IMG/VR virus record: IMGVR_UViG_3300025141_000075
Span: 931-64,930 of that record
Source: a virus
Lineage: Duplodnaviria > Caudoviricetes
Strand: one strand, 5' to 3'
DNA: 64,000 bases
The notes under the pieces are model-generated. The model was not told the origin of the DNA and did not search any database. It saw only the letters and a program-made list of their open reading frames with translations. The stretch's first letter is position 1. Every line of letters starts with the position of its first letter. Below, one piece after another: positions 3,481-53,501 of this stretch. The position numbers were made by a program, and so were the translations under genes.

Positions 3481-4212
3481 TTAGAAGACAAACCAGTTAG
3501 AACCATTAGAATAAACAGATATTGCCGTCATAGTACCAGTCATTTCGTAATATGGTTCTCCATCGATGGTTTCACCATCAGTGCCAGAGAGTATAATAGC
3601 GCCGGGAACACCATCAATCGGCATGCGTTCACCTGTGAATTCATCCTTGATCACTATTATAGAGCCTGTGGTGCTGTAGCCCGCAGATCCTGACGCAGAG
3701 TGTAACCTTATCTCCACTGGGCACTGACCTTTTACACCTATGAGGTAGTCACTGATAGATGACGATTGATACTTAATGACACCTGCGGCGCCGGAGACAT
3801 TGGTATACTTATGTTTGACACCACCATAAAGTGAAATTGCTACGTTATCTACATCAGCGTCAAGAATGACAGAGCCTGCAGCCTTACCTACAATGAGACT
3901 ACCAGTTCTAAAATGGTTGTCGTCGTTAGTGTTGCCAAATCTTGTTGAGCCACTAGAATCAATTCTGGTTATATCTTCAAAGTGATAGCTACTTGCGGAG
4001 ATTGCACCAGAGATAAAAAATGTTCCGGTTAGGATGAGGCTGCTTGTTGTACCACCGGCGCCGGGAACTGACCCGTTGTAGTTGTACATGAAATAGTTCG
4101 AACCAGACATGGAGTTGTTCCCTGTCAGGAACATGACTGATCCGGTCACACCATCCACGTTGGTGTGACGAATGTCGTCGCAGTTTACATATGCCCATCC
4201 AAATCTTGACAT
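3481..4212 (-). CDS. Fibre-like virion protein
   Basis: SGSTRFGNTNDDNHFRTGS motif; C-terminal VIKDE...ETIDG...SNGSNWFVF domain paralogous to neighbours. Confidence 0.7.
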   Translation of the reverse strand: MSRFGWAYVNCDDIRHTNVDGVTGSVMFLTGNNSMSGSNYFMYNYNGSVPGAGGTTSSLILTGTFFISGAISASSYHFEDITRIDSSGSTRFGNTNDDNHFRTGSLIVGKAAGSVILDADVDNVAISLYGGVKHKYTNVSGAAGVIKYQSSSISDYLIGVKGQCPVEIRLHSASGSAGYSTTGSIIVIKDEFTGERMPIDGVPGAIILSGTDGETIDGEPYYEMTGTMTAISVYSNGSNWFVF

Positions 4213-12109: not shown

Positions 12110-13693
12110 TCACTTTATAATCCACATATATTCTTTGTATAAATTTTCTGCATCTGACATTTTATCCATAACTCCATCTTCTTTGTATCCAATTTGTCCC
12201 CTTATTTTTGTATCAAAACTGGTTCTTGAGGTTATTATAGCATCTACGAAAGCCTTCTTGTAGTTCAAATCTCTTTGATTTGTCTGTAGTGCTGTGTCTC
12301 TGACCCAACATGCAATCGCAAGCGCCATAACTAAATCATCATTGTATCCTTTTAATGCTTGGGGTTTTCCGTTTGTCCAAATAAATGTTCTCAATTCATT
12401 TGCCAGACGAGACGAATATGTAGTAATTAGTTTGTTTCTTATAAACTCTTCTAATTTAGCAACAACCAGTGGCCGAGTTTTTGAAGATGTTGTAAATCCG
12501 GGTACCGCTGAATTCTTATGTTCTGCCATGTGCTGCTCAATATATTCATGGGTAGATTTTACAGAATAATAAATATTTGGGTAAGCATAATCAATTAATT
12601 TGTCTAAAACCGTGTATCCGATGCTGTTGTTCTCTATAACCATCATTGCGTTTCCAAATTCTCGGCCGATTTGATTTAACATGTTCGCATACAAATCGGG
12701 CGTTGGTTTACCTTGATACTCTCCCACAACCTGCATTGTTTCTAACTTAATAATATGAAAGGTTGAATAGTCTGCTCCATCGCCGCGAGCCACGTCTGCG
12801 GTCAACAGGTAGCTGCACGAAGGATCGTGCTCTTCCCAAATCCAGAAATTACGATCAAACGCTGTTTTGTATTTTGGTTCAATTATATTGTTTGTGATCC
12901 ACTCAAGGGCGTCTGGATCGATCACAGTTTCACCAGAAGTGTTGAAATTACATTCAAGCTCTTGGGCAATTTGCCGGCGTGACATATTGCGGGTCTCTTT
13001 TTTGAACCACTCTTCATCGCGCTCGGGATGGACGTCCCACATTAACGTTGTTAACTTGAAATTATTCTCTTTGGTCTCGGCGCCCACACATGTTTTGTGG
13101 AACCAGTTACCAACACCATTTGGGGTTGATATCGCTATGCAACGACCACCGGTGGACAGTGTGGGATACAGGCCGGTCCATAAATCCTCAAGCCCGTCAA
13201 TGTGTGCGGCCTCATCAAGAACTAAAAGAGACAATGCTTCTGAACGACCTGCATCACCAGAGGTAGAAGCAGCTTTGATTGTTGAACCATTAGAAAGCTC
13301 AAATGAAGTGCGGTTATCAGTAGAGATAGAAGCAATTCTAATCCAATCTGGTAGATTTTTCATTATACTTTTGACTTTGCGGACAAGGTTTCCAGCGGTC
13401 TCAAACTTGGTGGCCATAACAAGAATGGACTTATCACGATGAAACAGCATCATCCATACAATATAGCCGGCGGTCAATGTAGAAATACCAAGCTGACGTC
13501 CCTTGTTGATCACGTTGAAACGATAGTCATTAAAGTCGTCCAATAAATCATCTTGGTAATCAAAGGTGTTGAAAAGAATCAACCCGTGCATCGGGTGAGA
13601 TATACGGGCATACGTTTTAAGGAAGTAGGAGGGGTCTTTACCGCATTTAACTACTTCTTTTAATATCTCTTTCTTTGTTAATTTGAAACTCAT
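12110..13693 (-). CDS. Terminase large subunit (T4 gp17-like)
   Basis: Walker A KGRQLGIST, Walker B LLVLDE, STPNG coupling motif; nuclease ADVARG..D and DDLVMA. Confidence 0.95.
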   Translation of the reverse strand: MSFKLTKKEILKEVVKCGKDPSYFLKTYARISHPMHGLILFNTFDYQDDLLDDFNDYRFNVINKGRQLGISTLTAGYIVWMMLFHRDKSILVMATKFETAGNLVRKVKSIMKNLPDWIRIASISTDNRTSFELSNGSTIKAASTSGDAGRSEALSLLVLDEAAHIDGLEDLWTGLYPTLSTGGRCIAISTPNGVGNWFHKTCVGAETKENNFKLTTLMWDVHPERDEEWFKKETRNMSRRQIAQELECNFNTSGETVIDPDALEWITNNIIEPKYKTAFDRNFWIWEEHDPSCSYLLTADVARGDGADYSTFHIIKLETMQVVGEYQGKPTPDLYANMLNQIGREFGNAMMVIENNSIGYTVLDKLIDYAYPNIYYSVKSTHEYIEQHMAEHKNSAVPGFTTSSKTRPLVVAKLEEFIRNKLITTYSSRLANELRTFIWTNGKPQALKGYNDDLVMALAIACWVRDTALQTNQRDLNYKKAFVDAIITSRTSFDTKIRGQIGYKEDGVMDKMSDAENLYKEYMWIIK

Positions 13694-14508
13694 ACATCTT
13701 TTAAGTTTTCGTTAGCTCGGCCAAGAGAATCTCCCGTGTCTAAACCATCTAAAATATTAGCGACATTATCTAGAGCGCTTTGTAGTTCTGGATGGTGTTT
13801 GACTGCATCCTCAAGAGCGTGATATGTTGTCATTAACTTTTCGTAATCGTCGGGGGCTTCTTTGGTTGGGGTGTTAGTTTCTGGGGGGCTCTCCCCTTTC
13901 ATTACATCGTAAGATGCTTCAAAATCTTGGTAATCATCAAATACTTCTTTAATCATGGCTTTAACTTCTTCAAATCCTATTCTGCGACGTTGAGGTTCTA
14001 TGTATTCGGGAGCAAGTTTTTCAATAACGGCTGTAAACAAATCTAACATTTCTTCTGGTGGCAGCTCTTGTACCAAGGATACGACCCGATCTTCTAAAGG
14101 GGGACCAGCACGATCTTGAAAACCACCGTAATCACTCTCTGGTGCGTCATCTGATGGAACATCTGAGACTGCGGCTTCGGCTTCCGGATCATATGCACCT
14201 TCTTCGTCGTACTCATCATCGTATTGAGGCATATCATCCGTAGGAAGGGGCATTGTTTCAGCAGAACGATCAACATTGGAATCATTTGCTGGTGTTTGTT
14301 TTCCGCGTTTGTAGCTGCCCGGGCCATATTCACGTTCAAGCCACTCTGGTTTGGGCCCTTCTTTCTTAATCCAAGCTACAAACTCATCAGCTTTTTCTTG
14401 AGTCATAACTTCGTCAAGATTAAATTCTTTAGCATATTCTTCTAAAGCTTCTTCTTTGATGTACTCTTCTAAAATAATCTGCTTAAGTCGGGATTTACTA
14501 ATTTTCAC
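13690..14508 (-). CDS. Acidic leader-bearing protein, candidate internal head protein
   Basis: Start reassigned to GTG 14508 (AGGA upstream): (M)KISKSRLKQIILEEYIKEE. Confidence 0.7.
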   Translation of the reverse strand: MKISKSRLKQIILEEYIKEEALEEYAKEFNLDEVMTQEKADEFVAWIKKEGPKPEWLEREYGPGSYKRGKQTPANDSNVDRSAETMPLPTDDMPQYDDEYDEEGAYDPEAEAAVSDVPSDDAPESDYGGFQDRAGPPLEDRVVSLVQELPPEEMLDLFTAVIEKLAPEYIEPQRRRIGFEEVKAMIKEVFDDYQDFEASYDVMKGESPPETNTPTKEAPDDYEKLMTTYHALEDAVKHHPELQSALDNVANILDGLDTGDSLGRANENLKDV

Positions 14509-14509
14509 T

Positions 14510-15058
14510 TTACGATTCCTTTTTTCTGGAATCATTCTCTGGGCGCTTGCCACCCTTACCATTCCATCCACCTTGGTCAAGGAACTTTTTAAAACTATCT
14601 TCTAGGCGATCTTCAGATGGTTGACTGTATGCCATGTCTTCATCTAAGCCGCCAATCTTGTAGTGCATTTTGGCAGTGACCCAGCTTCTCACTCTGGATG
14701 AATTTTCAACACGGACATCAACTTCACCTTCTTTGGTAAGAGTAACTCCACTACCTGTGATCTTCTTGTATTCTTTCTTGAGAAACTTAACAATATCGGC
14801 AAGGCGTTGTTCAATCTCTTGCTCAAAGCCATTAGCATATACTTCGCGAAGCTGTACTTCAGAATGGTAGCCTAAGCAAAGCATGTTACCATAAAAACTA
14901 ACATTAAAACCATCCATCACCCTTTTATCAATCAGTGGGCGCCCTTCATCGCGTTGGAGACCGGGCTTTAAAGCTTCTCCGTTTTCATCCAATGCCCCAT
15001 CATAAGCATTAGCTGCGGCCTGTGATAAGCCTTGTATAATTTCGTAAACTGTTGCCAT
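14510..15058 (-). CDS. Hypothetical protein
   Basis: 182 aa; AGGAG RBS; ACTATTTA at 15088-15095. Confidence 0.7.
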   Translation of the reverse strand: MATVYEIIQGLSQAAANAYDGALDENGEALKPGLQRDEGRPLIDKRVMDGFNVSFYGNMLCLGYHSEVQLREVYANGFEQEIEQRLADIVKFLKKEYKKITGSGVTLTKEGEVDVRVENSSRVRSWVTAKMHYKIGGLDEDMAYSQPSEDRLEDSFKKFLDQGGWNGKGGKRPENDSRKKES

Positions 15059-15639
15059 TACTGATCTCCTTTAGTTTTCTTGTATTGTAAATAGTGTTTA
15101 ACTGAAGAAAGGTAATCAGAGGCTTTGGTGATTTTGGCCTGCACCCAAGCATCTAATTCTTCTCCATCGTGAATCATTTGTTCTAGCTCCGACGCATATT
15201 CGGCGGTGCGATATAGCTGCGACTTTGCCATTTGTGATTCATCCTGATCATAGTCGCTGGTCACTTGTGGCAATGGTTGTGTGGAGGGCATGGATGACCC
15301 ACAACCCTCTGTTGTAGTTAGAGGGTCGTCTTCTGTGCTAGATCCGCCCGGGTGCATTCTTTTGTCGAGCAAATCAAAAACAATTTGAATAACATTTCTT
15401 TTGGTATTTAAATCCATACCTTCCTCTGCTGCCAATTGGAGTATATACTCATAAACCTTGGTGGCTATATTCCGCTCTTGCGGACTAATCTCGCCGGCAG
15501 TGGCTTTGGTAGCAGTGCGCGTTTGAGTCGTTGCTTTTCCGACGCCAGCACTGGCGCGGTCTTTCTTTACATCAAGGGCGCCCTCTTCATTAAGTGATTC
15601 TAAGATAGCTCTCTTGATATCATTTTTCGTTATCTTCAT
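15058..15639 (-). CDS. Leader-bearing hypothetical protein
   Basis: MKITKNDIKRAILESLNEE; C-terminal MAKSQL...WVQAKITKASDYL helical domain of a kind I recall from T4-like phages. Confidence 0.7.
   Translation of the reverse strand: MKITKNDIKRAILESLNEEGALDVKKDRASAGVGKATTQTRTATKATAGEISPQERNIATKVYEYILQLAAEEGMDLNTKRNVIQIVFDLLDKRMHPGGSSTEDDPLTTTEGCGSSMPSTQPLPQVTSDYDQDESQMAKSQLYRTAEYASELEQMIHDGEELDAWVQAKITKASDYLSSVKHYLQYKKTKGDQ
15088..15095 (-). promoter_or_regulatory. ACTATTTA putative late promoter
   Basis: 29 nt upstream of the ATG at 15058. Confidence 0.5.
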
Positions 15640-16424: not shown

Positions 16425-16797
16425 ACTCAATACCAAATTTAGTTTCTATATCTTTAATTAGTGCTTCCTTATCATGTCTGAACTTTCTTTTATATTCGTT
16501 ATTCTTTTTTTCTCGAAGTCCTTCAAGTTCTTCTTGAGCCTTCTCATACTCTTCTTCAATCGCCGCAATTGATTCTATAAAGCTCTCCATTAATAATTGC
16601 TTCTTTTCTATTTCTCGCTTGTGGATTTCTCTTAAGCCTTCTATCTGGGCTTCGTGAGATTCTATTTGAGTTTCATACGCGGTCTGCATAAGTTTATAGT
16701 CGTGACCGTTCTTGAGAGCCACAACGGTCAAAAGCAATACTATTAGTATTGCCTTCCAATTCTTCAGAGCAAATTCTAGTATCTTCTGCTTAATCAT
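16414..16797 (-). CDS. N-terminal TM + coiled-coil protein (i-spanin-like)
   Basis: WKAILIVLLLTVVAL followed by a long charged coiled coil. Confidence 0.55.
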   Translation of the reverse strand: MIKQKILEFALKNWKAILIVLLLTVVALKNGHDYKLMQTAYETQIESHEAQIEGLREIHKREIEKKQLLMESFIESIAAIEEEYEKAQEELEGLREKKNNEYKRKFRHDKEALIKDIETKFGIEYVP

Positions 16798-16990
16798 TAT
16801 ATCCCTTTAGCCGGGCAATACCATCGATAACCGTTTGGCCCCCAATATAGATTGCTGAGATAATCACCCAGTCTTCACTGGTGACGTGCTCTGTGAAGGT
16901 CAACGCCGTAGCCGTTAACCATACCATCAACTTGCGCGATGTTAATTTTTCTAACCAACTGTCTACAAATGCTTGTGCTTTTGCCATCAT
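16790..16990 (-). CDS. Putative holin
   Basis: 66 aa, two hydrophobic helices, KLTSRKLMVW start typical of small holins; Met-Met start. Confidence 0.55.
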   Translation of the reverse strand: MMAKAQAFVDSWLEKLTSRKLMVWLTATALTFTEHVTSEDWVIISAIYIGGQTVIDGIARLKGYND

Positions 16991-16992
16991 TA

Positions 16993-17166
16993 TTACCTCT
17001 CTTTTAATATGTTTTTTAATTCTTCACGAATAATTTCTTCAACAGAATACAGCTTTTTTAAATATCTTTTAGCTTTTGAAACAGAGCTAGAGCAGCCCTT
17101 CTTTTTACCCTGTGAGCCATCTCGCATTTTCTTGTATATACACTTGCCGACGCGCTTGTAAGGCAT
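16993..17166 (-). CDS. Small basic protein (57 aa)
   Basis: Not in the track. MPYKRVGKCIYKK...KKGCSSSVSKAKRYLKKLYSVEEIIREELKNILKER fills the gap exactly (TAATG coupling). Confidence 0.7.
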   Translation of the reverse strand: MPYKRVGKCIYKKMRDGSQGKKKGCSSSVSKAKRYLKKLYSVEEIIREELKNILKER

Positions 17167-17453
17167 TACTTAAGTTTTGCCAGCTTTGAGGCCAAGGCCG
17201 GTGTTTCATGCTTAAATTGGGCGATTGAATCCATAATACTTTCTGCGTTTGCGGGACCATTGTACCATTCAAAGAATATAGATGCCATATTATATTTAAT
17301 AATCCACTTCTTTTGAATTCCAGCTTCAACACACAAAGCTGTGAATATCTCGGCTACGTCACCAGCATCTTCCTCTTCCTGTACTACTACAAGTGTGGGA
17401 GATACAGAAGTCTTCTTTACTAATTTATTCCAAAGTGTTTTTAATAAATTCAT
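17166..17453 (-). CDS. Hypothetical protein
   Basis: 95 aa, translationally coupled at both ends. Confidence 0.65.
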   Translation of the reverse strand: MNLLKTLWNKLVKKTSVSPTLVVVQEEEDAGDVAEIFTALCVEAGIQKKWIIKYNMASIFFEWYNGPANAESIMDSIAQFKHETPALASKLAKLK

Positions 17454-18208
17454 GTTGCCAATCCATTCATGCTTCTTTTCAGTTCATTTAATGAAAAGTT
17501 TTCAAATCTTTCTTCTTTGATGGGCAATTTCCATTTACCGCTACCTGAATTCCAATCAATTTCGCAATAGCAGGATGTTTGCCCGTTCTCTATAAACTCA
17601 ACCAATCTGTGTAAGCCGTCTACAACTAAAAACTTTTGTTCTTCCTCGATCCAATTAACTTTAATTGGGGCTTGCGGGGTTCTGCTTCGTGCCCCTTTCA
17701 AGACATTTTGATAAGCAGCAAGAATTCCCTGCTCCGTGTTACCTGTTTCGACAATCAAATGATCAAAGTGGATCTTAGCTTCGCCGAGGGCGCCCTGTAG
17801 CGATTTTAGCACCTGCTGCAGCTGGCCGGCCAAAGCAGACGCCTTGACTGTTGCCTGTTTTACTGCTGCTGGATTTGCTTTTGCTTGCTGGCCGCCTTTC
17901 GCTGCTGGCGACACAGCGGTACTCTCAAAGCCTTGAGGGCCGGAAGCAGCTGCTTTGGCTTTCTTGTCGGCGGCGACATCGTCGGCGGTTGCAACGTAAG
18001 TATTTTTGAAGGGATCTTTTGTCTTTGGTTCAGGTTCGCCGGCTTGCTGTCTTTTAAAGCGTGCAAGCTCTGCTTTATACTCTTCGGGAGATATGAGGCC
18101 CTCATCTGCCATGGCCTTCAGTTGCTTAAGCTCTTGTTCTGTATTTTCTTTTATGTGCTTTCGCCAATTTTCAAATAGTTTTTTCATGTTGCTAATCCAT
18201 TCATACTT
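17449..18208. repeat. 26-bp imperfect direct repeat (17449-17474 and 18183-18208)
   Basis: ttcatgttgcYaatccattcatRctt; both copies encode SMNGLAT-stop. Confidence 0.9.
17450..18187 (-). CDS. Leader + SHOCT-like + ParB/Srx-like domain protein
   Basis: Start ATG 18187 overlaps the ftsZ TGA: MKKLFENWRKHIKE. LKQLKAMADEGLISPEEY is SHOCT-like; PIKV...FLVVDGLHRL is ParB/Srx-like. Confidence 0.7.
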   Translation of the reverse strand: MKKLFENWRKHIKENTEQELKQLKAMADEGLISPEEYKAELARFKRQQAGEPEPKTKDPFKNTYVATADDVAADKKAKAAASGPQGFESTAVSPAAKGGQQAKANPAAVKQATVKASALAGQLQQVLKSLQGALGEAKIHFDHLIVETGNTEQGILAAYQNVLKGARSRTPQAPIKVNWIEEEQKFLVVDGLHRLVEFIENGQTSCYCEIDWNSGSGKWKLPIKEERFENFSLNELKRSMNGLAT

Positions 18209-19326
18209 AGTATCGCAATCAATCCGGGCACATTCTTTCTGACATAAACGCCAGAGAAAAGTGTCTCGCATCGGCCGCCGACATAAGCGATTGCCGACTC
18301 AATATTCTTGCTGACTTTTGGATCAGCCACCATCTCTTCTGACACAACCAGCACTAACGAGCCTGCAGCAGCCTTTCCCTTGGGGGGAGGGCATGCAGAA
18401 CGATTCATGCAGTTATGGAGGATCACCGATCCAAGCTTAGCTGTATTTGGATCTTTTATCATAGTTGAGCCCAAGAAGGCACGACCGTCATTGCCCAAAC
18501 ATGTTTCCAAATCCTTGCTGTCAAAAGATTGGATCGGTGAATCCTCAGTGGAGAGCTTTAACACTTGGGCAAGTGACTTAGCAAAAGTTGTGTTGGCGAC
18601 AGGGTACATGCCAAGCATGCCGATTCTGCCGCGCAGTAAGCGTGTAGCTCGTTCGTTATCAAGAACGATATGCGGATGTTTAGCAACGTCATTTGCCAGT
18701 GTCAACGCATTACGAGCGATTGTGGGGTTAAGGTTTTCTTGTGCGGTTGGCCATGAGACTATGTAAACGACCTTGCCGCTCGACTGCACAGAGCGCATGT
18801 AACGCTCAAAGACAGGGTGCAGAGCGGTAACACTACTACCGGTACCGCCACCACCGCCAGCAAGGACGAATAGCCAATCAACTTTACCGAGTTTGATGCG
18901 GAGGGCATCTTCAACAATTGCACCATTTTGACTTAAAACCTCTTTTCCGTAGTCTACGTTTTTTCCAATCCCGTCTGAATCGGGGATGAGGACAACGTGA
19001 TCCTCTTCTACATTCTTTGGAATGTCTTTACCTGTTGAATTTACGAGTAGCGTTTTGTTGAATCCAAGTTCAATAAACGCATTCGCCATTTTATTGCCTC
19101 CACCGCCGACACCAACGAAACCAACATTGATAGATGAGGGTGCTGTGTTCTCGGGGAGTAAATCTTCATCAGAGTATTCCATCTGTAATCCGAAATCCTC
19201 AACCATGCCGAAATCTTCTGCATCTACTTCTTCGTGGTAACTGTCTTTCTCCTGCGCAAACGCGGGAGGTGGTTCTGCGGGAGGCAGAAAATCAAATTCG
19301 TTTTTATCGTCGTTTTCGTCTGACAT
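18184..19326 (-). CDS. FtsZ/tubulin-family GTPase
   Basis: VGVGGGGNK, LLVNS, GIGKN and GGGGGTGS (tubulin signature); IVLDNE; T7-like FDSKD; acidic N-terminal extension. Confidence 0.92.
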   Translation of the reverse strand: MSDENDDKNEFDFLPPAEPPPAFAQEKDSYHEEVDAEDFGMVEDFGLQMEYSDEDLLPENTAPSSINVGFVGVGGGGNKMANAFIELGFNKTLLVNSTGKDIPKNVEEDHVVLIPDSDGIGKNVDYGKEVLSQNGAIVEDALRIKLGKVDWLFVLAGGGGGTGSSVTALHPVFERYMRSVQSSGKVVYIVSWPTAQENLNPTIARNALTLANDVAKHPHIVLDNERATRLLRGRIGMLGMYPVANTTFAKSLAQVLKLSTEDSPIQSFDSKDLETCLGNDGRAFLGSTMIKDPNTAKLGSVILHNCMNRSACPPPKGKAAAGSLVLVVSEEMVADPKVSKNIESAIAYVGGRCETLFSGVYVRKNVPGLIAILSMNGLAT

Positions 19327-19337
19327 TGTTTATTCCT

Positions 19338-19691
19338 TTAAGCTTGATGCTTTCCGTGATGTGGTTTACCAAGTTCTGCAAAGATCTGAGAAATCTCAAT
19401 GAAAGCTTCTTTGCCCGGGCGTCCCATATACTTAAGACCGTTCTCAAGTGAACTCGCAATATGATCTACACTGAAATATTTCAATGCGTTTTTCATATCT
19501 GTGGCAAGTTTCGCCTTATCAACCTCAACATCGTCGTTGTAGAAAGGATCATAAGGCTCTGACATATCCGGGTACTTCTCTGGTTCGGGCTCTGGTTCGT
19601 AAACGCTTTTTCCTGCGGGGGCGTCGAAGTTAATTGCCTCTTTTATCTCTTCCTTAATAATTTGTTTAAGTTGCGACTTACTAATTTTCAC
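19338..19691 (-). CDS. Leader-bearing hypothetical protein
   Basis: GTG start, MKISKSQLKQIIKEEIKE; GGAG RBS. Confidence 0.75.
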   Translation of the reverse strand: MKISKSQLKQIIKEEIKEAINFDAPAGKSVYEPEPEPEKYPDMSEPYDPFYNDDVEVDKAKLATDMKNALKYFSVDHIASSLENGLKYMGRPGKEAFIEISQIFAELGKPHHGKHQA

Positions 19692-19702
19692 TTTGTAATC
19701 TC

Positions 19703-22700
19703 CTATTGGTTTACTCTTGCGTATCCGTCTTTCTTTTCAATCACGATTTGCATGTCAACACAATCTTTGAGCGAATCAAGGTGCGAGATCAGCAAAACGT
19801 TCTTAAAATACACTTTAATTAGTTCCAAGATCCGAATAAAACCCTCCATATTTTCTTCGTCTAGTGCGGTACCCGGCTCATCAAGGATAAACAAGTCGCT
19901 TTTAGGCAATGATGAAACACTCAAAAGTGCCAAGCGGATGGCCATGGCGGCCATTGTTTTCTCTGCTCCAGATGCCATCTCAATTGGGCGCTCGTTATAC
20001 TGTGGGTGTTTGATGAAGATATCAAATTTATTTCCTGATGTCTCAAAGAAAATTTCGAAATCTACAATATTGGCTAATACTTTGGCAATTTCTGAATTAA
20101 TAACAGGCATTTTCTTTTTGATAATGTCATAAGCAATACCATTGGAGTGCATACAACGCATAAATAAATCATAAGCTGAGAACTCTTTTTCCAGCTGAAT
20201 ATACTCTGCTTTTAATTCTTTCAAATTTTCAGATTGTTGTTCAAATGAGCCCACCTTTTTATAGAGACCAAGGGTCTTATCTGTTTCTATTTTGATACTT
20301 TGTCTCACCTTAATAATACTCTGTTCATAATCTTCTTTATTGTTGAGCAGTTTTTCAAGATTTTCAATAGCTTCTTTGTTTTGCTCATAGGCCATCTTTT
20401 TGTCGGTCAAATCAGAAACAGAGTTATTGATCCTCTCAAGAGCGATATTGTTTCTTTCAATACTCATTTTTAAATCGTTAATCAAAATCTCTGTTTCTTG
20501 TTTTTTGTTCTGCAGTTTCTTAAATTTCTCTATGTGATCCGAAACGATTGTGGGAGCCAAGGCAGACAAGGTCTTCTCTAATTGTACTACTTCGGTTTTC
20601 ATTTCAGGTATTGTTGCGACTGCAATATGTGCATCTTTTATAAACTTACACGTAGGATATGATGTACCACAAGGTATATCATCCAGCAATCGTTCTTTGC
20701 TTATTGCGGAATCTAACAAACTTGTAAACTCAGCTAATTTATGGTTAGTCTCGGTGATTTGTGTCTGCTGTGTAAGCAAAGCATCGTAATCAAGCTGTCC
20801 CATAAGAATAGTTATTTTATCATATCGGGCTTTTTCATTTTTGAGAGTTGTTGAGTCTTCAATTATTTTATTAGACAATAAATTAATCTGTTTTTGATTC
20901 TTTTCTAAAGCACGATAAATATCGAAGATATCAATTGCCTCCGCGGGGATGTCTGAAATTTGTTTGTCAGCCTCAGCCAAATTTGCTTCTTGCTCTTTTA
21001 AAACTTTTTCTTTAGATTTTACAATCTTTTCTTGTTTTAAAATTTGATTTTTACAGTTTTTCAGATTTTTGAGTGCTTCTTCAATTTCAGCCTCATATTC
21101 CCTATCTTCTAATTTTTTAAGATATGCTTTCGCTTCAACTGATTCTTCCTTCGCCAATTTAAACTTTTTATCAAAAATCTCTAAGTCTAAAAACTTGGCA
21201 ATGATTTCCTTACGACGCGTGGAACCTTCGTCGATAAATGCCAGTGAACCATGTTGTGAGGCTAATGATGATACGTTGAAATCCTCAATTGTGCCAAAGT
21301 GTTTACGTATATTCGCATCCGTGTTATTACGTGTTAAGCCATTTAGAGATGTTGTCTCGCCGGTGGCACAATTGTGAACTTCAAAATTTAGCTCAGTCTT
21401 AGCTTCTTGTGTTTTCTCCCCCTTCAGCGTCTTAACATATTTCGTGGCTGTTCTTTCAATCATGAAAAGGTTATCATTAATTTGAATTTCTAATTTGCCG
21501 CGGCCGTGATCTTTGTTTTGATTAATTACATTAAGGTTTTTGCGCTCATTCTTAGAGGTTGTATTGAACAATGTCCATAAGGCGGCATCTACAACAGAAC
21601 TTTTGCCTGAGAAGTTTTTGCCAAATATACCAACGATCCCATCCAGTGTATCAAAACAAACATTATTTTCTTCACCGTAATTAAACAAATTATCAAATTC
21701 AAAATTTATCAATTTCCAATTAATGTTGCGAGAGACGTCTTCCTCTTTTTCAATGATCACGTTGTACTTTCTATTTAATTCATAAACGCTTTCTAATATA
21801 TCATCTGTAATATGGTAATCCTTCAGATATTCGCTGATCAATTCTTCTTGAACTTTGATATCACGTAGGTTCTCGGTCTTAAGACCATCTGTTAACTCTT
21901 CTACATTGCCACGTTGGCCTGATGCTCTGTTAAGAAACGAAATGCTTTCAGGCTTAAATCTATGTTTAGCGATATCCACTGCACGTTTCATTACATCTAA
22001 AGGCAGGTTGTTATTGCTGACTAGTCGTAAACGTGAACCGGTAGGAACCGCGGTGTTTTTGGGCATGCGGCCCTTCCGCGTAAGTTCTATTGTAATAAAC
22101 GCCTTGGGGTTTATAAGAGATACATGACGGGTATCAAAATTGTTTTTGTCTTCTATCTCCCATATCAAATAACCTTTGTCGTTGCTTTCACCATGGTTCT
22201 GCTGTACTAAACTGCCCGGGTATCTTGCTTTCCCATCATTATCAATCTTTTGATTAGTCTTGTGGATATCACCCAAGAGCGCATAGTCGTATTTCTCAAG
22301 GGTTTCCATGTCAATATCACCGTGAGTCATCATCCAACCACTGTCGGTGACTGAGCCAACCACAGAGCCATGATAAAGGGCGATGTTCGTGCGGTCTTCC
22401 GGCAACGTCTCTTGCCAATTTTCTGGATCAACAATAGATAACACATGTAGATCAATTCCGTCAGCAACTTCAATAACATCTGAATATTTGTGAAAATGAA
22501 TATTGGGGTGCTTCAGATTATCCACAATAGGGCTTATTGCATCCAGTCTTCCGCTATTCTTAAGGTTCATATCATGATTACCAAGAATTATATGGTATGG
22601 TGCGATGTCTGCTAAATTAACAAACAGATCACTCATCATACGAATCGCCTCGGGGCTCAAATCAAGTTTAGTGTGAAAGGTGTCACCGGTGTTAACAATA

Positions 22701-22819
22701 ATATCTGGTTTTTCTTCTTTTAGTTTTTCGTAAAGCTGTTCAAATACAGCACGGTATTCCTTATGATACTTCAATTTTCGGACATGGATATCCGATACAT
22801 GCGCAATCTTAATGCCCAT
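19703..22819 (-). CDS. Fused SbcD/Mre11 nuclease and SbcC/Rad50 ATPase (gp47-gp46-like)
   Basis: Phosphoesterase motifs DIH, GDTFH, GNHD, HG and GDIH; then Walker A GKNFSGKSS, coiled coil, SGAEK signature, FILDEP Walker B, ISH. Confidence 0.92.
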   Translation of the reverse strand: MGIKIAHVSDIHVRKLKYHKEYRAVFEQLYEKLKEEKPDIIVNTGDTFHTKLDLSPEAIRMMSDLFVNLADIAPYHIILGNHDMNLKNSGRLDAISPIVDNLKHPNIHFHKYSDVIEVADGIDLHVLSIVDPENWQETLPEDRTNIALYHGSVVGSVTDSGWMMTHGDIDMETLEKYDYALLGDIHKTNQKIDNDGKARYPGSLVQQNHGESNDKGYLIWEIEDKNNFDTRHVSLINPKAFITIELTRKGRMPKNTAVPTGSRLRLVSNNNLPLDVMKRAVDIAKHRFKPESISFLNRASGQRGNVEELTDGLKTENLRDIKVQEELISEYLKDYHITDDILESVYELNRKYNVIIEKEEDVSRNINWKLINFEFDNLFNYGEENNVCFDTLDGIVGIFGKNFSGKSSVVDAALWTLFNTTSKNERKNLNVINQNKDHGRGKLEIQINDNLFMIERTATKYVKTLKGEKTQEAKTELNFEVHNCATGETTSLNGLTRNNTDANIRKHFGTIEDFNVSSLASQHGSLAFIDEGSTRRKEIIAKFLDLEIFDKKFKLAKEESVEAKAYLKKLEDREYEAEIEEALKNLKNCKNQILKQEKIVKSKEKVLKEQEANLAEADKQISDIPAEAIDIFDIYRALEKNQKQINLLSNKIIEDSTTLKNEKARYDKITILMGQLDYDALLTQQTQITETNHKLAEFTSLLDSAISKERLLDDIPCGTSYPTCKFIKDAHIAVATIPEMKTEVVQLEKTLSALAPTIVSDHIEKFKKLQNKKQETEILINDLKMSIERNNIALERINNSVSDLTDKKMAYEQNKEAIENLEKLLNNKEDYEQSIIKVRQSIKIETDKTLGLYKKVGSFEQQSENLKELKAEYIQLEKEFSAYDLFMRCMHSNGIAYDIIKKKMPVINSEIAKVLANIVDFEIFFETSGNKFDIFIKHPQYNERPIEMASGAEKTMAAMAIRLALLSVSSLPKSDLFILDEPGTALDEENMEGFIRILELIKVYFKNVLLISHLDSLKDCVDMQIVIEKKDGYARVNQ

Positions 22820-39868: not shown

Positions 39869-42800
39869 TTAGTTGGAGAATCGTAGGGGGGTCCATACGA
39901 TTCCTCCTGTGCCGCCGCCGGATGGTGGTGGCGGTGGTGGTGGAGCGCCGCCGCCGGATGGTGGTGGCGGTGGTGGTGGCGGAGAAGAGCCGGGTGGTGG
40001 TGGCGGGGCCCCCCCGGGGATAGAAGGAGACATATCTCTAATTGCGGCGGTCGCTGCGGCTTTGGTAGAATATACCTGTGGTAATATTTGTGCTTGTTGT
40101 TTAATAAGATTCAGCGTATCCACCGGGGGTGATAAGACAGGCGTAGTAGTGGCAGATGAGGCTTGCTCTCTAATTAAAGATACACCCCTATTTGATTCAT
40201 CATCAAACAATATTTCAATATCAACCTTAATACCTTCAACAATCGACACAAAGTCGTAAGGCCAGTTATATTGAACTTCATATGCTTGCACTGGGGGTTG
40301 GGCCGGTTGGGCTTCACCGGGAGCCCCGGATGTGCCGGTTTCTTCCTCAGCAGTGTTGCTTCCTGCTCCTGTCCCCCAGCCCCCGGGGTTTACCATGCCC
40401 GGGACGTCTGCGCCAAGTACAATGCCTTGGCCCGGCCATCGGGATCGGGCGCCGGAGGGACCAACAAATTGAATGCCTGTGACTTTGCCAAAAGAATCTT
40501 TAGCTTGCTCTAATACATGACTGTTATACTCTCCAACGGCTTTTTGTTTGACCTTGAATGCCATAAAACGTACATCGGGTGTTTCAATCCCTAGGGCCTC
40601 ACTAGTGCCTAAGAGATGACTAGCGTTCAATAATTCGCTGGTATCTAAGCTGTGTGCGATTGATTGTTCTTCAAATCTAATTTTCTTATAGTCTGCCGGA
40701 GCGAGATTCTGCCAGATGTAAGACAAGTCATTTTTATGGAATTTGTGAGAAAACTCAAAAATATACATTACAATTGGTGTAGTTTCAGGATTTCTAATAA
40801 AGTCAAACTCTGGTGGTAATATATACTTATCCATCTTAGCAATGAGTTTTCTAATTGATTCTCCAGCAACATCTATATTAGCACCCGTCGCACTTTGGGC
40901 ATTGGCAGAAATAGCTGCCTGAACCGCAAGCATCGGAATGCCAAAGAACTGTTTAGCAGCGTTTAAAGACACGTCATCGGCCGCTTCAGGGTGTGTTGAA
41001 AGCGTCGTATCAAATTCTTTGGTTGTTATATATGGGATTAACACAACCGCTTCTTTTATTGTCCGGGTGGGCGCGAGTTCGCCAAGTCTTCTCCTTCTAT
41101 TTATTGGTGTGAAGCCAAGCCGGCTCGTGAGAGATTTAAATTTATTTTTTATTGAATTACCGTTTGATCCGGGGTCGGAGACAATGCCCGGGTTGCCTTT
41201 ATTATAAATACTGGCGTCGTTTACCACATTATAGTGATGTGCTAACCAGTTCTTTGGAATATCACCAATTTCCATAAATATTCCTTTTTTCTTATTAGGT
41301 TCAATAATTCCAAATTGGTGCCACATTCCGCGGGGGACTGAGCCAGATCCAAATACTTCCGGTATTGTTAAAGATCCGGATGCTGCGCTGACTCTGCGAT
41401 AATTAGAGTTAAAGTTCAGCATCGGGGTCTCGAATTTTGGTTTAATAACCCACCGCATAGCTTTTGTCTCGTTGCGTGTTTCTTGTAGAAGTTCAAGGGC
41501 ATCATTAGTCTGGAAGGGTATTCTTTCAATACCAAACATATTTACACTAGCACTCAATTGAACAGCTTGGTTGTTGATATTTCGTGCACCACCGACGTAT
41601 GATAAAGAATGACCAGTTGGGCGGCGCACATCATGCATAAATGCTGGCCTTGTATAAGCTGCATTAGAATATTTAATTTCGGGGCCCGGGTCGGCGCGCC
41701 AATAAACAGTTTCTGCTCTGGCTAAGATCTCATCGATAGCATATTTTCTAGTTTCATGTGGATAAAATAAGATGTCGGCCCATGCCTCACCATGATAATA
41801 AGGTGGGGTAAATGACCAGTTATATCCATTTACGCAGTCCATTGCACCAGAAAAAGAAGCGCTGATAAATTCATCTTCATCCGCGCCGCGGCCGGCCACC
41901 GGGGGACCAAAGGCCGTAGGCCTACTGTACATTGTGAATGTTTCGTTCACGCCAGAATTATCGGATGGATTAGGATCTTGAGGGAGTGGATATTCGCCGG
42001 AGCCAAATCTAGTGCCTTGTTGGTTGGCGGCTGCATCGCCCCCATTTGAACCACTGTTGGCAAGTAATCGCCTACCACCTGTCTTGCCCAAAGAAGCCGA
42101 AGCATTAACATCTGTAACGGTATGGAGACTGGAGTGTCCGCCTGTGCCGGCTTCCAACAACCTATAGCCTGCATTATCAAAGTCCATCCCGTAGTGTTTT
42201 GTTCCGTTCGTGGAGCGGTACATTTTAAGGCGGGCGCCCCATAGGGTACCACTTTGGAAGAAAAGGCCGTCGCTCGGTATTTCAGCTGATTTCATCTGTG
42301 TGAAGTCTCCGCCTCGTAAGAAAAAGTTTGCTGTTTCGCCAAAAAAGTTCCGGGCCGCTAATTTATACGTGAAGTCGCTGTCAGTCGTTAAAGAGGCTGT
42401 GAAAGGTGATGAGGATGAGACTGCCACCTCTAAATCACTTATTTTTTTATTCAGCAAATACTCAGCAGGATCTAATAGTGTTTCAAACGGAAGTCTATCA
42501 TCCCAGAATGGACCCTCAGTCCAACTGGACTCGTCCATTAAACTAACGGTGCCAGCACCAAAGGGTGAACCTTGTGATCCGGCATATGCCCTTATAGAGC
42601 CACTTCTATTTTTATCTTTCAAAGCATAAATATAATTTGGCTTTGTGGTGGTACCGTACAAGATCGGATGATCAACGGCCATACCAGATTTAATACTATT
42701 ATAAAGGAGCCCGGGATTAAATAAAGGCCCTACTACCGGGCGAATCTGGGCGAATAAATCTTTGTTATAACCAGCGCTGAGGTCGATCTCCTTAGTGATC

Positions 42801-45800
42801 AGAGGCCCCGTGTTCAGATCGGAGCCCGAATAATATGTTAGCGATGGAAGGATACTATCTTTAAAATCGTCATAAAATATTGAAACCAAATCAAGTGTGC
42901 GCTGGGCAGGGTAGAAACCCTTATAAGGATTGAATTTTTTAACTGCCGCGACGGTGATTCTAATCTCTTTAGGTGTCATCGTCGTTTTGGCTTTTAAGGC
43001 CCGGGCATACATTAGTTTTTCTGAGTTTGTGTAATCCCTGTAGAATGATGAGGTTACTGCCCTCATTGCTGTTCCGGGGATTTCAAGATAATCCTGAAAT
43101 TTTGACCAGTGGTTTCTCAATAAATCTGGCACGTGTTGACTCATTCTAAATTCTGGCACAATTGCGTAATCTTTTGCCAATACCCGTATATCATCGCGGA
43201 AATCTTGGTAATTGTCATACCATGGTTTAGATTTGCGTGAATGAAATACTGGGTGAAGTTTCATATCTAATGATCTTGACAACTGAATATAGCCAGCTTG
43301 CTCATCAGCCTCCCACAAGGCTTCGCCCGAAAAAGGTTCAACAGTATTAACAATCTCTGGGTTGGCTGCCATGTTTGCGACCCCTGTGGAGTCCAGAGAC
43401 GCTTGAGTTCCTTTTTCCGGGATGGACATACCGGAGGGAGGAACAACAGATCCAATATTTGGTAGCATTTGTTTTCTTGTATACAAAGCGCCGTTGGAGA
43501 GTTGAAATCTCATATCAAGATTGCGGAACGCGAAGGCCAGGGCGGCTTTGATCGCGGACGGTGCACCAGAATCAGCCGGCGCTTGTTCAAATTCTGCCAG
43601 ATCTTGGTCAAAGAAATACTGTGTGTAATTATTCTGTAGTTCTCCCGCTTTTCCGTAAGCGATCAAACTATCTTGTGGCGAAATATAGGCGCCCATGCCG
43701 GTTAAAGAACCAGTACGAGTCAAGAAATCTTCTTGTGCATCTAAACACCAAGCGCTTTGACTCAGAAGATTGTGATGTGTTCCGAGGTTGCCTTCGCGCG
43801 TGCCAGCAGAATTAGCAAAAGTGGAGCCCAAAGTAACACGATCCGCTATGAGATCTCTCCAGAACAAGTTGTCATAATTCGTTCTTCTTCTCGATGATGA
43901 AACGAATTCCATGCGTTGTGATGGGAAAATATTTTCTGTATATATCAGGTAATTTGGATCAGCCCAGCCAATAGATTCACCATCCATAGTCGCCATAAGA
44001 TAATCAAAAGGTGTTAATATTTCATGGGGATTTATATCGGTGTAAGTGTTTAAACCATTAGAATTAAAAAATATTTTATTATTATTATCTGTCGCCTTTA
44101 AAGTAATTGAATTACCTAGAGGTGAGGCACCCATTCCGCATGGGGTCGTTTCTACACTTGGTGTATAATTAATGATCGTAGGGCGCCCCCTCATTGACAC
44201 TGGCGGCAACGTGAAATTAGTCATCGCATATGTTCTTTCTTGTCCCGTTATGGTGTGTTCAGGATTCCAAGTTGGGGGCCACGGTGATAATACCCACGCG
44301 CCGCGATAAACATCCCTCATAGCATGGGTTATGACTGAAATTTCACTTGATGATCTTTCGTTACGTAACACTGGGTGGTTGGGGTTGCGTCTAAACTGAG
44401 CGTGTGTTCCGTATCCATATGGGCCGTTGCGTTTAAGCATCAGGGTGTTAAACATATACCCTTGCATTTGCCATGAAGTCCAATCACCTTGAGGGCCACC
44501 GGAATAAGAACCAGAGGTAGAGCCACGAATAGTTGTGGATGTTGCATCATTTATAAGTGCGCCTTGGCCCTTATAAGATCTGTTCATGTAATGAGGTGTT
44601 TGATCCAGCGTCGTGGATGAAGATGGGAACCAATGACCAGTAGTTCCTTTTGAACGTTCAAATAGTGGAGTTCCTTTAGGGTATCCCAGCATGTTCGAAG
44701 ATGCGGTGATGGGTTCATAAATAATTGTGTTGAGGCCAACAAAATCTTGCGGAGTAAAGGATTCTTTTACTCTCGTACTATAACTCATAGCCCATTTTTT
44801 AGTAGCACCGAATCTTCTGCTGGCGCTGCCACCACCGTTGTATATACCAACTTCACCGCCGCTAATCATCGTCATCCATGGCTCCCAGCCAGAAGATGCA
44901 GAATATCTACCTTGCTGTTCGCCAAATAAAGGCATATACCCAGAGTATCTAAAGTTATGACTGCATGGGTCTGTGTGTTCCATAGCACCCGTCATCCATG
45001 TGTATTGACGATCTCCGCGAGGGATTTGGTGATGCTGATTAAGGTTGTCGTAATGATTTCCACAGGAATAAGTCATAGAGGAAGAATAACCAAGGACTGC
45101 CGGCGTGCAGCCGTCAAGGGGCGCAGGATAATGGCCACCTGCCCCAGCGCCTTCATCAATCACTAATGCTGTATTTTCTGTGATTGTGGCATACGCCAAG
45201 GGGAATAAATGATTTCCTGCTGTATGTGAATTCCATATAGCGTTTGAAGATGAATTAAAAGCTTTGGGATTACTTTTGTCAATAGCATCTGTTTGGTTGC
45301 CATCTCCAAGTTTGTACCAAGCAAATAAATGTGACCCGCTAGCACCATATACTGAAGATGCTGTAATATCACAAGGGATTCCACTATTATATAATGCTGT
45401 AACTTCAGAAGCGCTTAGTGCAACGGCCCATAGAGATATCTGGTCCATGGCACCGGTGTGGTTTTGAGTCCCGATGGATGTTCTAGAACAATCTGTTCCA
45501 AAACCCATTACCGAATCACTGTCTCTCGGGACCGCACTCAAGACAGAATATGAACTATCAATTTTTTGATCGAAGTATTCACGTGGGGATGTGTTCTCTA
45601 CAACTATCTGCGATTCTCCGTTAAAATATATTGATGGGAAACTGGGGCCATTGACTCCAGCAGAGACAGGCAGCGATACTGCAACATGTACCCAACTTCC
45701 GTTGTTTAAATTGGCAGCTTGACCTATCGTTCCCGTGGTTGAAACCAGATATTTAGCGCGAGTATGGCTTCCACCATGACCGGTGGCTTGGTTTCTCGTT

Positions 45801-51973: not shown

Positions 51974-53501
51974 AATTCTCTACTCTAAACCTGAATGTTT
52001 CATCTTGTTCAACCCAATCACTTAGGCTTGAATCATAGAATGCAAACTTAAATGCATATTCATATCCGGGTTCAAGAAGCGTCATATCAAAATCAAAATA
52101 ATTTCCTGATATATCGTGTGATAAAACAGTGTGTAAATCACTGCCTGTACCATGTGGAATGGCATTAAAGCTATCTAATACGCGATAAACCCTATAAGAC
52201 GCACTTTCAATTGTTGTGGTTTCAATATTGTTATTGGCCTTGGTATAAATTGTTGGGGACCAGAATTTTTCCCTAACATATAGGTTAAATCTTGCATTTT
52301 CTTTGGAGCGATATCTTTGTTTTAAGTTTGTAATATTCAAATAGTAACTTGGTCTAATTGAAATTTCATTTCCTTCGAATGTCTGTGGCTTGAACGAGCC
52401 CGTGAAAAACCTCGTACTACCCGTGTACCAAACATCAAACATATCTGTGATCTTGTTCCTTGCGGTACCTGTAATAGCAAGACTACAACTATAAATACCT
52501 GTTGAGACCTGACCAGCAGTAGCATAAAGCTGGGAATCTCCGTATCCAGTTCGGTCATCAACACAAAGTGTCAACGCGCTTCCAGATGGCGTTGTGTTGT
52601 CCACTGAGCCAGAGTGAAGGCGGACCCTCAAGAGGCCAGTACCCACGTTGGGCAAGTTTTGTAAATTGCCGCGGACATAGTTATAATAATATAGTGTATT
52701 TACATTTTGGTCACCGGAAGCTACTGAACTACTGTAATAAAAATTTGCTCGGTCGTCTTTAATACTGGAATCCCAGCGCGCCTCTATGACCGGTCTTTTA
52801 AAATAATATTGAGTGCCGCGGGCGAAAAAACGTTTTGTATAAAAGGAGGTGGCGGTGCCGGTTAAATTGTAAGATGCGGTCGTCTCTTGTGAGGCGGACA
52901 AGCCAATACCAAATCCGTAATTTGAGTATACACTACCAAGCCACTCTTCCATAAGAATAGTAACATCAACTTCAAGATCTTCAAGGCCACTCTCAAAAAC
53001 TTGATTAAAGTTTGAGGCCGTCAGATAATCCCCCCCTGCTTCAGCCCAGTCTGATACTGTTCCATTATCTTCTCGCTTACGTTGAACCCAATTCGAGCCT
53101 GTATTTCCAATCGTATAATCAAGATAGTTTTCCAAGTCAAGGCCGCTGCCTTCTTGCCACGATTGGGAAACTGGCTTAACCGTGAGAGTATAATTTTTCG
53201 GAACAGTTTTAGATGTTTCTGCGTTGTATAATTTTAAATAAAAATTAACACTTCCGCTAGCGGGGATGGCGCCACTACTTCTGTCAGTACTAATTGACGT
53301 AACAGGGAACTGAACCAATATTCTTGATAATTCAACTTGTTTATTTTCGACCGAGGACGTATAGGCGCGCCCAAATATAGAATATGTTTCAAGAACGTCT
53401 GCGGCGCCCATGTTTGAGCCCGTGGCGCGGCGAGTCAAGTTAGCCTGCCATGCATTTGAAATTGTATTATCTGCCGTCGCGGTGTAGCGCTTTATCGCCA
53501 T
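51963..53501 (-). CDS. Virion protein with DNRLRE-like domain
   Basis: ATADNTI...SRILVQF...SWQEG.G...W...GGDY...DVT..W...NYG...RPVIEARW pattern. Confidence 0.65.
   Translation of the reverse strand: MAIKRYTATADNTISNAWQANLTRRATGSNMGAADVLETYSIFGRAYTSSVENKQVELSRILVQFPVTSISTDRSSGAIPASGSVNFYLKLYNAETSKTVPKNYTLTVKPVSQSWQEGSGLDLENYLDYTIGNTGSNWVQRKREDNGTVSDWAEAGGDYLTASNFNQVFESGLEDLEVDVTILMEEWLGSVYSNYGFGIGLSASQETTASYNLTGTATSFYTKRFFARGTQYYFKRPVIEARWDSSIKDDRANFYYSSSVASGDQNVNTLYYYNYVRGNLQNLPNVGTGLLRVRLHSGSVDNTTPSGSALTLCVDDRTGYGDSQLYATAGQVSTGIYSCSLAITGTARNKITDMFDVWYTGSTRFFTGSFKPQTFEGNEISIRPSYYLNITNLKQRYRSKENARFNLYVREKFWSPTIYTKANNNIETTTIESASYRVYRVLDSFNAIPHGTGSDLHTVLSHDISGNYFDFDMTLLEPGYEYAFKFAFYDSSLSDWVEQDETFRFRVENYEY

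Follow-up and report, generated by a model that had tools for sequence, protein, structure and literature searches.

In lambdoid phages, short conserved boundary or 'linker' sequences at gene boundaries have been proposed as preferred crossover points between otherwise unrelated modules. In T4-type phages, promoter-early stem-loops (PeSLs) of approximately 100 bp, each made up of a sigma-70 promoter and a terminator stem-loop, lie between ORFans; there are about 50 PeSLs per genome over many regions, insertions and deletions between relatives end at PeSLs, and cassettes can loop out (Arbiol et al., 2010, PMC2839356; Comeau et al., 2014, PMC4122927). In bacteria, insertion with long target duplication has been described for restriction-modification genes, where the repeats are longer than 30 bp (46 to approximately 400 bp) and some of them, as its Figure 3 legend states, extend over the end (3′) of an adjacent gene (Furuta, Abe and Kobayashi, 2010, PMC2853133). 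Here, a stretch of 64,000 nt from an uncultured marine tailed phage (positions 931 to 64,930 of IMG/VR record IMGVR_UViG_3300025141_000075), referred to as the window, was investigated for a 26-nt direct repeat that ends both a gene for an FtsZ-like protein (ftsZ) and the small gene that follows it, the cargo gene. Based on comparisons with relatives, the repeat belongs to a recurrent junction element, R, which is derived from the ftsZ 3′ end and is probably used as a promoter-less, coding-end crossover site that keeps translational coupling. The few relevant searches of the literature did not find R, which is weak evidence of its absence from print, and none of the papers listed by searches on FtsZ encoded by marine or jumbo phages concerns this lineage.

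The two copies of the repeat, at 17449 to 17474 and 18183 to 18208, have a start-to-start spacing of 734 nt and are identical at 24 of 26 positions. Both mismatches are synonymous (AGC/AGT, serine, and TTG/TTA, leucine), both stop codons overlap the next start codon as ATGA, and the genes around the repeat are all on the minus strand. The duplication, its two synonymous differences, its spacing of 734 and the ATGA overlaps had been described in an earlier note on this DNA and are present in the window as written there. There is no third copy in the window at three or fewer mismatches, and 100 dinucleotide-preserving shuffles gave no pairs; the whole 64,930-base record has two copies and its reversed control none. 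The repeat copies and the two genes that end in them are as follows.

18183 to 18208, minus strand: repeat copy R1, containing the ftsZ codons S-M-N-G-L-A-T, the TGA overlapping the next ATG and the first bases of the next gene; 22-nt core at 18186 to 18207.
17449 to 17474, minus strand: repeat copy R2, the end of the cargo gene, with its TGA overlapping the ATG of a 95-aa gene; 22-nt core at 17452 to 17473.
18184 to 19326, minus strand: gene for a tubulin/FtsZ-like GTPase of 380 aa; it is conserved and anchors a variable slot on the left, and its last eight codons and stop are the source of the repeat.
17450 to 18187, minus strand: cargo gene (245 aa) with its ATG at 18187, an MKKLFENWRK module at the N-terminus, a weak helix of SHOCT type and a C-terminal domain that is conserved; the last seven codons are R2 in frame.

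The source record is a fragment (CheckV 34 %) in which genes for portal, large terminase, baseplate-wedge, primase and fused SbcD-SbcC-like proteins were identified with PHROGs. A PHROG family is absent for 28 of the 34 window proteins, including those of every gene in the slot downstream of ftsZ, and tblastn of the FtsZ-like and cargo proteins against 50,697 deposited phage records gave no match at E ≤ 1e-5. The relatives used here are the best 80 of 150 confirmed IMG/VR loci, with FtsZ-like proteins 81–99 % identical to that of the window; together with the window, these make up 81 sources, in which R was scored at four or fewer mismatches to its 22-nt core. All of the relatives are metagenome assemblies, their island genes were called by a simple script, and the loci are phylogenetically related, the counts not being counts of independent events.

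In these sources R is a junction element of about 24–28 nt, with the consensus (ATA)CTAAGYATGAATGGATTAGCRACAT and the 22-nt core AGTATGAATGGATTAGCAACAT. There are 129 copies, all on the gene strand, of which 74 are at the ftsZ end and 55 are elsewhere. Copies per locus range from none to six, with at least two in 33 of the 81 sources. Five long relatives (four of them rated 100 % complete, at 187–196 kb) have two to five copies each, confined to the island downstream of ftsZ, and the reversed control has none. An exact scan across IMG/VR gave at least 155 matches; among those listed, 92 are at ftsZ ends, 60 are elsewhere and three are too near contig ends to be placed.

R derives from the 3′ end of ftsZ. 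The FtsZ-like protein ends in ...LIAILSMNGLAT, also given as ...NVPGLIAILSMNGLAT, and its assignment holds: Pfam PF00091 scores 34.1 bits against a cut-off of 33, the motif GGGGGTGSS is present in the sequence, and the AlphaFold2 (AF2) model (pLDDT 78.7) has FtsZ chains as its top Foldseek matches (E 2e-20, TM 0.62–0.78 depending on the target), with TubZ and CetZ also found. The FtsZ label of the earlier note is thus upheld, by a family score above the cut-off and by a model that matches solved FtsZ chains. Among 899 homologues at E ≤ 1e-5, those down to 57 % identity keep the tail ...PGL[IV]A[IV]L[SCTG][MV][NS]G[LI], followed by two to four variable residues, and in the AF2 model residues 369–378 (LIAILSMNGL) are the last beta-strand of the predicted fold. 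Because the tail is kept to such distances and forms this strand, the FtsZ-like gene is the native home of SMNGL and the source of the remaining copies.

The length of ftsZ sequence that has been duplicated is not constant. One relative (L006) has, approximately 1.9 kb downstream of its real ftsZ end, a second copy of 56 nt (3893–3948) at 96 % identity that reads NVPGLIAILSMNGLAT, exceeding the usual 24–28 nt, and many other copies reach leftward to ATACTA; overall, the duplicated stretch has a left limit that shifts between 22 and 56 nt. In a sister clade with the ftsZ tail ILTM[SG]GLPQGR, one locus (L084, 5105–5780) holds a second copy of its own tail, with one mismatch in 24, located 649 nt downstream, after a cassette with a DnaJ domain and just before the next gene start. 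This copy (ATGrGTGGATTACCACAAGGAAGATAA) supplies the AAGGA ribosome site of the next gene, and it is an independent recurrence of the same process with a different sequence. Together, the variable left limit and the sister-clade copy suggest that the initial duplication happened more than once.

R was also placed relative to the open reading frames (ORFs) on either side. An ORF of at least 40 aa starts within 20 nt after 128 of the 129 copies, either overlapping as ATGA (58), behind a leader of 7–20 nt with a Shine–Dalgarno (SD) site (67) or otherwise (3). One of the 55 copies away from ftsZ is itself a 5′-cut ftsZ, leaving 54 true non-ftsZ copies. In 36 of these the upstream ORF stops at the left edge of R (TAA of cTAAgt in 24, TAG in seven and TGA in five), in 14 it stops 3–23 nt before R or 16 nt inside it, and in one there is no upstream ORF. 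Only three are read through in the SMNGLAT frame: the window cargo gene, its homologue in L009 and an unrelated cassette in L020 (5128–5607). In the non-ftsZ copies conservation is abrupt, running from cTAAG to ACAT, and copies that are not translated are approximately 90 % or more identical.

The slot that R occupies, between ftsZ and a conserved 66-aa gene, is hyperplastic. In 75 complete islands it spans 12–3545 bp (median 1453) and holds zero to eight genes, in 65 architectures made from 164 gene families, 113 of which are singletons. The junctions in these islands are not equally served by R.

First junction after ftsZ: R in 61 and degenerate R in two, of 75.
Inner island junctions: R in 40 and degenerate R in three, of 189.
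Junction before the 66-aa gene, when this is not also the first: R in none and degenerate R in none, of 74.

The earlier note had predicted that related phages would show an empty allele, with ftsZ directly coupled to the homologue of the gene at 17166 to 17453 and one copy of the repeat. Such alleles exist. In two relatives (L015 and L019) ftsZ is followed by one R and then by this homologue, and a third (L053) is fully empty. When aligned, the single R of L015 matches R1 and R2 of the window alike. The window and its relatives cease to be homologous at the end of R1, or approximately 40 nt later when the next gene shares the MKKLFENWRK module. Across loci, the partners change, but each cassette keeps the left edge of the R that follows it, stop variant included, and each gene keeps the right edge and leader of the R that precedes it: genes of family 17 are followed by three different combinations of partner and leader, and those of family 12, to which the 95-aa gene belongs, come after ftsZ in L015 and L019, but L001, L035 and the window each have a different cassette in front of them. 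This pattern of edges and partners is what crossovers within a shared core would produce.

Homologous recombination inside R, begun by rare illegitimate or unequal events, is the mechanism that we infer. The ftsZ 3′ end would have been copied behind small accessory genes in the slot immediately downstream, the first such duplication behind a foreign gene being an illegitimate or unequal event. Each copy of R is located after one gene's stop and before the start that follows, as an overlapping ATGA or with an SD leader, and due to this placement an incoming gene would stay within the translationally coupled ftsZ operon; R would also matter for expression of the gene that follows it. R would be a short stretch shared between otherwise unrelated cassettes, because it is present at ftsZ in relatives and in extra copies in many of them, and a single crossover between the R copies of co-infecting relatives, in or out of register, could add, delete or re-order cassettes. 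The 734-nt unit of the window, the cargo gene plus one R, would be one such cassette, and recombination between R1 and R2 would yield the empty form found in L015 and L019. The shared heptapeptide would be explained solely by loss of the cargo gene's own end, translation continuing through R in the frame of ftsZ. One of the two options in the earlier note, insertion of a gene at the ftsZ 3′ end with duplication of the target, is in this way partly borne out: the cargo gene is at the ftsZ 3′ end, the repeat is derived from ftsZ, coupling is kept and empty alleles exist, however the repeat is not the scar of one insertion but a recurrent boundary, with 55 copies away from ftsZ.

Several observations weigh against the crossover reading or restrict it. 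R is absent from 146 of the 189 inner junctions, where the genes use ordinary SD sites, and R therefore explains only part of the gene flux. The duplicated tail is also absent from 20 loci of a sister clade with the ftsZ tail ILSMNGIEKGK. A length of 22–28 nt is near the lower limit for homologous recombination. Within a locus, the ftsZ copy is closer to the other copies than it is between loci (1.38 against 1.72 mismatches, p=0.0012, among related loci that are not independent), but this similarity would be expected from recent duplication no less than from gene conversion, and when all copies are pooled, concordance within loci is not significant (1.64 against 1.76 mismatches, p=0.20). Recombination at R is read from comparison of sequences, and metagenome assemblies could in principle join strains at a shared repeat.

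R might instead have been kept mainly as a cis-acting element of translation or RNA, with recombination secondary, acting either as a re-initiation relay via a mini-ORF or as an operator that controls ftsZ together with its neighbours. This alternative, which is compatible with the crossover reading, is possible but considered doubtful. It would account for the confinement of R to the gene strand, for its place immediately before a gene start in 128 of the 129 copies, for the high identity of copies that are not translated, and for the tail copy of L084 containing the ribosome site of the next gene. It would also account for lowered synonymous variation over the last 8–13 ftsZ codons: third-codon-position entropy is 0.50 bits in the last eight, compared with 0.94 in 99 other codons for conserved amino acids (71 unique sequences, p=0.005). 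However, frequent recombination also predicts low synonymous variation and conserved copies, and the low variation and the within-locus similarity fit recombination or conversion and a nucleotide-level role in translation alike. The inner junctions that do without R, using ordinary SD sites, are a further argument against this alternative. No RNA structure is predicted at R, with 36–71-nt folds around both window copies giving z-scores of −0.50 to +0.41. Nine promoter-like sites were found in 16700–19800, none of which overlaps either copy, and there is no terminator-like site at R. The candidate relay is a six-codon mini-ORF within R, MNGLAT (ATG AAT GGA TTA GCA ACA TGA), which begins 2 nt downstream of the usual TAA and terminates at the ATG that follows, but its own ATG is altered in several copies (CTG in L009, ATA in L022 and L059, GTG in L024).

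A stronger form of the crossover reading, in which R is an actively maintained 'plug-in socket' that is both a recombination site and a translation re-initiation signal, including the six-codon relay, can only be put forward tentatively. If it were true, any promoter-less ORF landing in the slot would share the expression of ftsZ and could move from one co-infecting phage to another, and the locus would be an integrase-free analogue of an integron, feeding leader-tagged, possibly capsid-loaded, fast-changing proteins in an abundant marine lineage.

It is improbable that a dedicated mobile element or enzyme, such as a transposase, an integrase acting on an attC-like site or a homing endonuclease, inserted the cargo gene and made the repeat as a 26-bp target-site duplication. 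The direct repeats do flank a single gene for which an empty allele exists, and the arrays are in one orientation, as they are in integrons. However, no inverted repeats were found at cassette ends and no hairpin is predicted for R, the left limit of the duplication varies between 22 and 56 nt, and R is nowhere else in the 187–196-kb genomes. A scan of 81 island proteins, which were the L084 cassette and 80 of the 141 family representatives that reach 75 aa, gave no match to any family of nucleases, recombinases or transposases. ORFans make up nearly all of the cargo, with no Pfam family at E ≤ 0.001 in 77 of these 81 proteins. J-domain (DnaJ, PF00226) cargo is present in L078 (5127–5846, E 8e-10) and L084 (5131–5751, E 5e-6, just under the cut-off).

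The other option in the earlier note, that SMNGLAT is a functional C-terminal peptide common to FtsZ and cargo, kept for docking or degradation, is very improbable, as is a role in localisation. The cargo protein ends ...ELKRSMNGLAT*, and in its favour two window proteins and the unrelated protein of the L020 cassette have this ending, as do, with SMNGLAT-type tails, seven of the 15 database relatives in the cargo-family alignment (A1), three more of which end SMNGLTK. However, since only three of the 54 non-ftsZ copies are translated in this frame, the heptapeptide is incidental. Cargo relatives above approximately 70 % identity end in SMNGLAT, SMNGLTK or similar, whereas those at 65–67 % have unrelated tails after ...FSLKELK. 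In the FtsZ-like protein the residues belong to a predicted last beta-strand and not to a free tail, and those after GL vary. The earlier note had asked for a test of SMNGLAT conservation in both proteins: the core SMNGL is kept in FtsZ-like homologues, variable beyond GL, but the tail is not kept in the more distant cargo homologues.

Support for the arrangement in the window was assessed on Logan contigs of four runs (X1–X4), not on raw reads. R2 is bridged, with zero to five differences, by contigs of three runs from three studies, among them the following independent ones, in which it is bridged with no difference.

X1, record 2: corresponds to 17395–18181.
X2, record 10: corresponds to 17041–17676.
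X3, record 19: corresponds to 17304–17702.

R1 is bridged solely by a short contig of 168 nt (X2, record 13, 18151–18318). One X3 contig joins 17453 to 18189, skipping 735 nt, with 18 other letters between; as one side has only 25 letters, it proves no excision, and it fits any R that precedes the SD-leader form of the 95-aa gene. The summed depth over the ftsZ 3′ end is in the hundreds to approximately 10,000 (X1, X3 and X4), compared with 3–31 over the cargo gene, and there are many loose contig ends at 18144–18182, which is what a conserved gene with many alternative downstream cassettes would give. That the two-copy arrangement is an assembly artefact, joining strains at the shared repeat, is very unlikely: the site is indeed an assembly break-point, with its loose ends, its steep contrast in depth between the ftsZ end and the cargo gene and the many IMG/VR contigs that start or end near R, but contigs from three runs of three studies bridge R2, L009 carries a homologous cargo gene ending in R, typical reads span 26 nt, and identical architectures recur in different samples (L037/L072, L039/L056 and L005/L058), with the exact cargo protein sequence on record on five contigs.

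Many viral contigs start or end within approximately 120 nt of R (L128, L138, L141, L142, L151, L172, L178, L180, L187, L192, L193 and others), which makes the island a place where assemblies of marine metagenomes often break.

The body of the cargo gene has a homologue in only one of the 80 loci (L009, 69 % nucleotide identity). In the 15 relatives of alignment A1 the same core stands behind three different N-terminal modules, indicating that 5′ coding modules are swapped as well as 3′ junctions. These three short modules on small proteins are of the types MKITKxQLKQIIKEE-, MKKLFENWRK- and MA[IR]RKNxKRxDPRYF-, and they recur on many island gene families. In the window, module-bearing genes are at 17450 to 18187, 19338 to 19691, 15058 to 15639 and 13690 to 14562, all on the minus strand, and a complete 195-kb relative has only seven, of which five are near ftsZ and two are at about 92–94 kb.

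The earlier note had called the cargo protein SHOCT/ParB. The SHOCT label is weak, at 20.8 bits against a Pfam cut-off of 27, and the ParB label has no support from sequence searches. As a ParB/Srx-fold (ParB_N) protein the cargo found no support: PF02195 matches none of the 15 family members at E ≤ 1, a relaxed Pfam threshold, and there is no Protein Data Bank sequence match with either the protein or the 15-member profile. ParB_N came up only in unscored Atlas leads that are below the Atlas's own bar. The AF2 model of the cargo protein, made from the 15-sequence alignment, is unusable for a fold search because its pLDDT is 42. PADLOC found nothing for four of the slot proteins.

The remaining genes around the slot are the following.

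17166 to 17453, minus strand: 95-aa gene (MNLLKTLWNKL...) of family 12, a variable cassette present in seven of the 75 islands in seven different neighbour contexts.
16993 to 17166, minus strand: 57-aa gene of family 9, also variable, present in 11 of the 75 islands in seven contexts.
16790 to 16990, minus strand: conserved 66-aa gene, the right anchor of the slot, which ends all 75 complete islands.
19338 to 19691, minus strand: 117-aa gene with a MKISKSQLKQIIKEE-type N-terminal module; the SbcCD-like gene and ftsZ enclose another variable slot, in which it lies.

This second slot, upstream of ftsZ (19327 to 19702 in the window), is hypervariable too, at −4 to 1895 bp and zero to three genes among the relatives. 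In L047 a homologue of the 117-aa gene (ending ...GKPHHGKHQDI) is instead downstream of ftsZ and is followed by R, and L034 and L006 each have a copy of R upstream of ftsZ.

Beyond this slot, a 1038-aa ORF (19703 to 22819, minus strand) has PHROG matches to an SbcD-like nuclease at residues 1–472 and to an SbcC-like ATPase at 302–1037, suggesting that it fuses a pair of proteins that usually have a gene each. Two giant ORFs on the minus strand, at 39869 to 51973 (4034 aa) and 55734 to 62246 (2170 aa), have no PHROG family at E ≤ 1e-5; both are near the baseplate-wedge-like gene at 53501 to 55297.

The R locus gives a sequence-level picture of how small genes are gained and swapped in large uncultured marine phages without a mobility enzyme. 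The independent tail duplication of the sister clade suggests that this is a recurring process rather than a single occurrence. R marks a point where assemblies break and where ORFan turnover is concentrated, 113 of the families in the 75 islands being singletons, and is thus a place in which to seek host-interaction genes. It is also a warning that terminal peptides shared between proteins need not be functional tags.

Compared with integron arrays, R arrays have the same single orientation, promoter-less single-gene cassettes and a recurring site beside a fixed anchor. The attC site of an integron forms a hairpin, whereas R has neither inverted repeat nor hairpin and no integrase or recombinase is among the 81 island proteins scanned; R is a copy of a coding end and not a recombination site of known type. 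Similarly, R differs from the target-site duplication of a transposon in that no inverted repeats or transposase were found and its length, at 22–56 nt, is not fixed. Insertion with long target duplication shares with the window the direct repeats that flank the insert, the single-copy empty allele and, for the island proteins scanned, the lack of a mobility gene. Each of those insertions is a single event, whereas R, at 26–28 nt, is below the 30-bp threshold, is in a phage, and bounds many cassettes with up to six copies per locus. The original report of this type of insertion is said to be that of Nobusato et al. in 2000, from H. pylori. In the linkers of lambdoid phages the homology is ancestral, intergenic or at gene ends, and is shared by alleles of a single position, unlike the gene-end copies of R, which are re-used in tandem.

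In T4, the cleavage-site motif of the prohead protease is (L/I)xE. The T-even phages have hypervariable genes for internal proteins that share a conserved capsid targeting sequence (Rao and Black, 2010, PMC3012670). Both these proteins and the island cargo, which is known here from genes, are diverse, fast-changing, small proteins with a short conserved N-terminal module; the likeness is to the N-termini of the cargo and not to R.

The closest described system is that of the PeSLs. Both PeSLs and R are short conserved motifs between the stop of a small ORFan and the next SD site or start in hyperplastic regions, both have the end-points of insertions, deletions and replacements on the motif, and in both a relative can have a single copy where another phage has a gene with a copy on each side; for both, shuffling of cassettes has been proposed via recombination between copies. 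However, PeSL cassettes bring their own transcription signals, whereas R, at 24–28 nt, is without promoter, terminator or structure, its genes being linked by stop/start overlap or by an SD leader. PeSLs are also genome-wide, whereas R is a copy of a conserved coding end in one island, with two to five copies per genome in the five long relatives and two in the record of the window. R is therefore not a PeSL, because it has no promoter, no stem-loop and no genome-wide spread, although it shares with PeSLs the position at gene boundaries on which end-points fall. It extends the PeSL idea from promoter/terminator modules to a coding-end junction, and links it to the bacterial insertion with long target duplication. 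R is a clear and well-replicated case of a principle described before, and it calls for no new machinery; a translation-coupled junction derived from a coding end is an extension of that principle.

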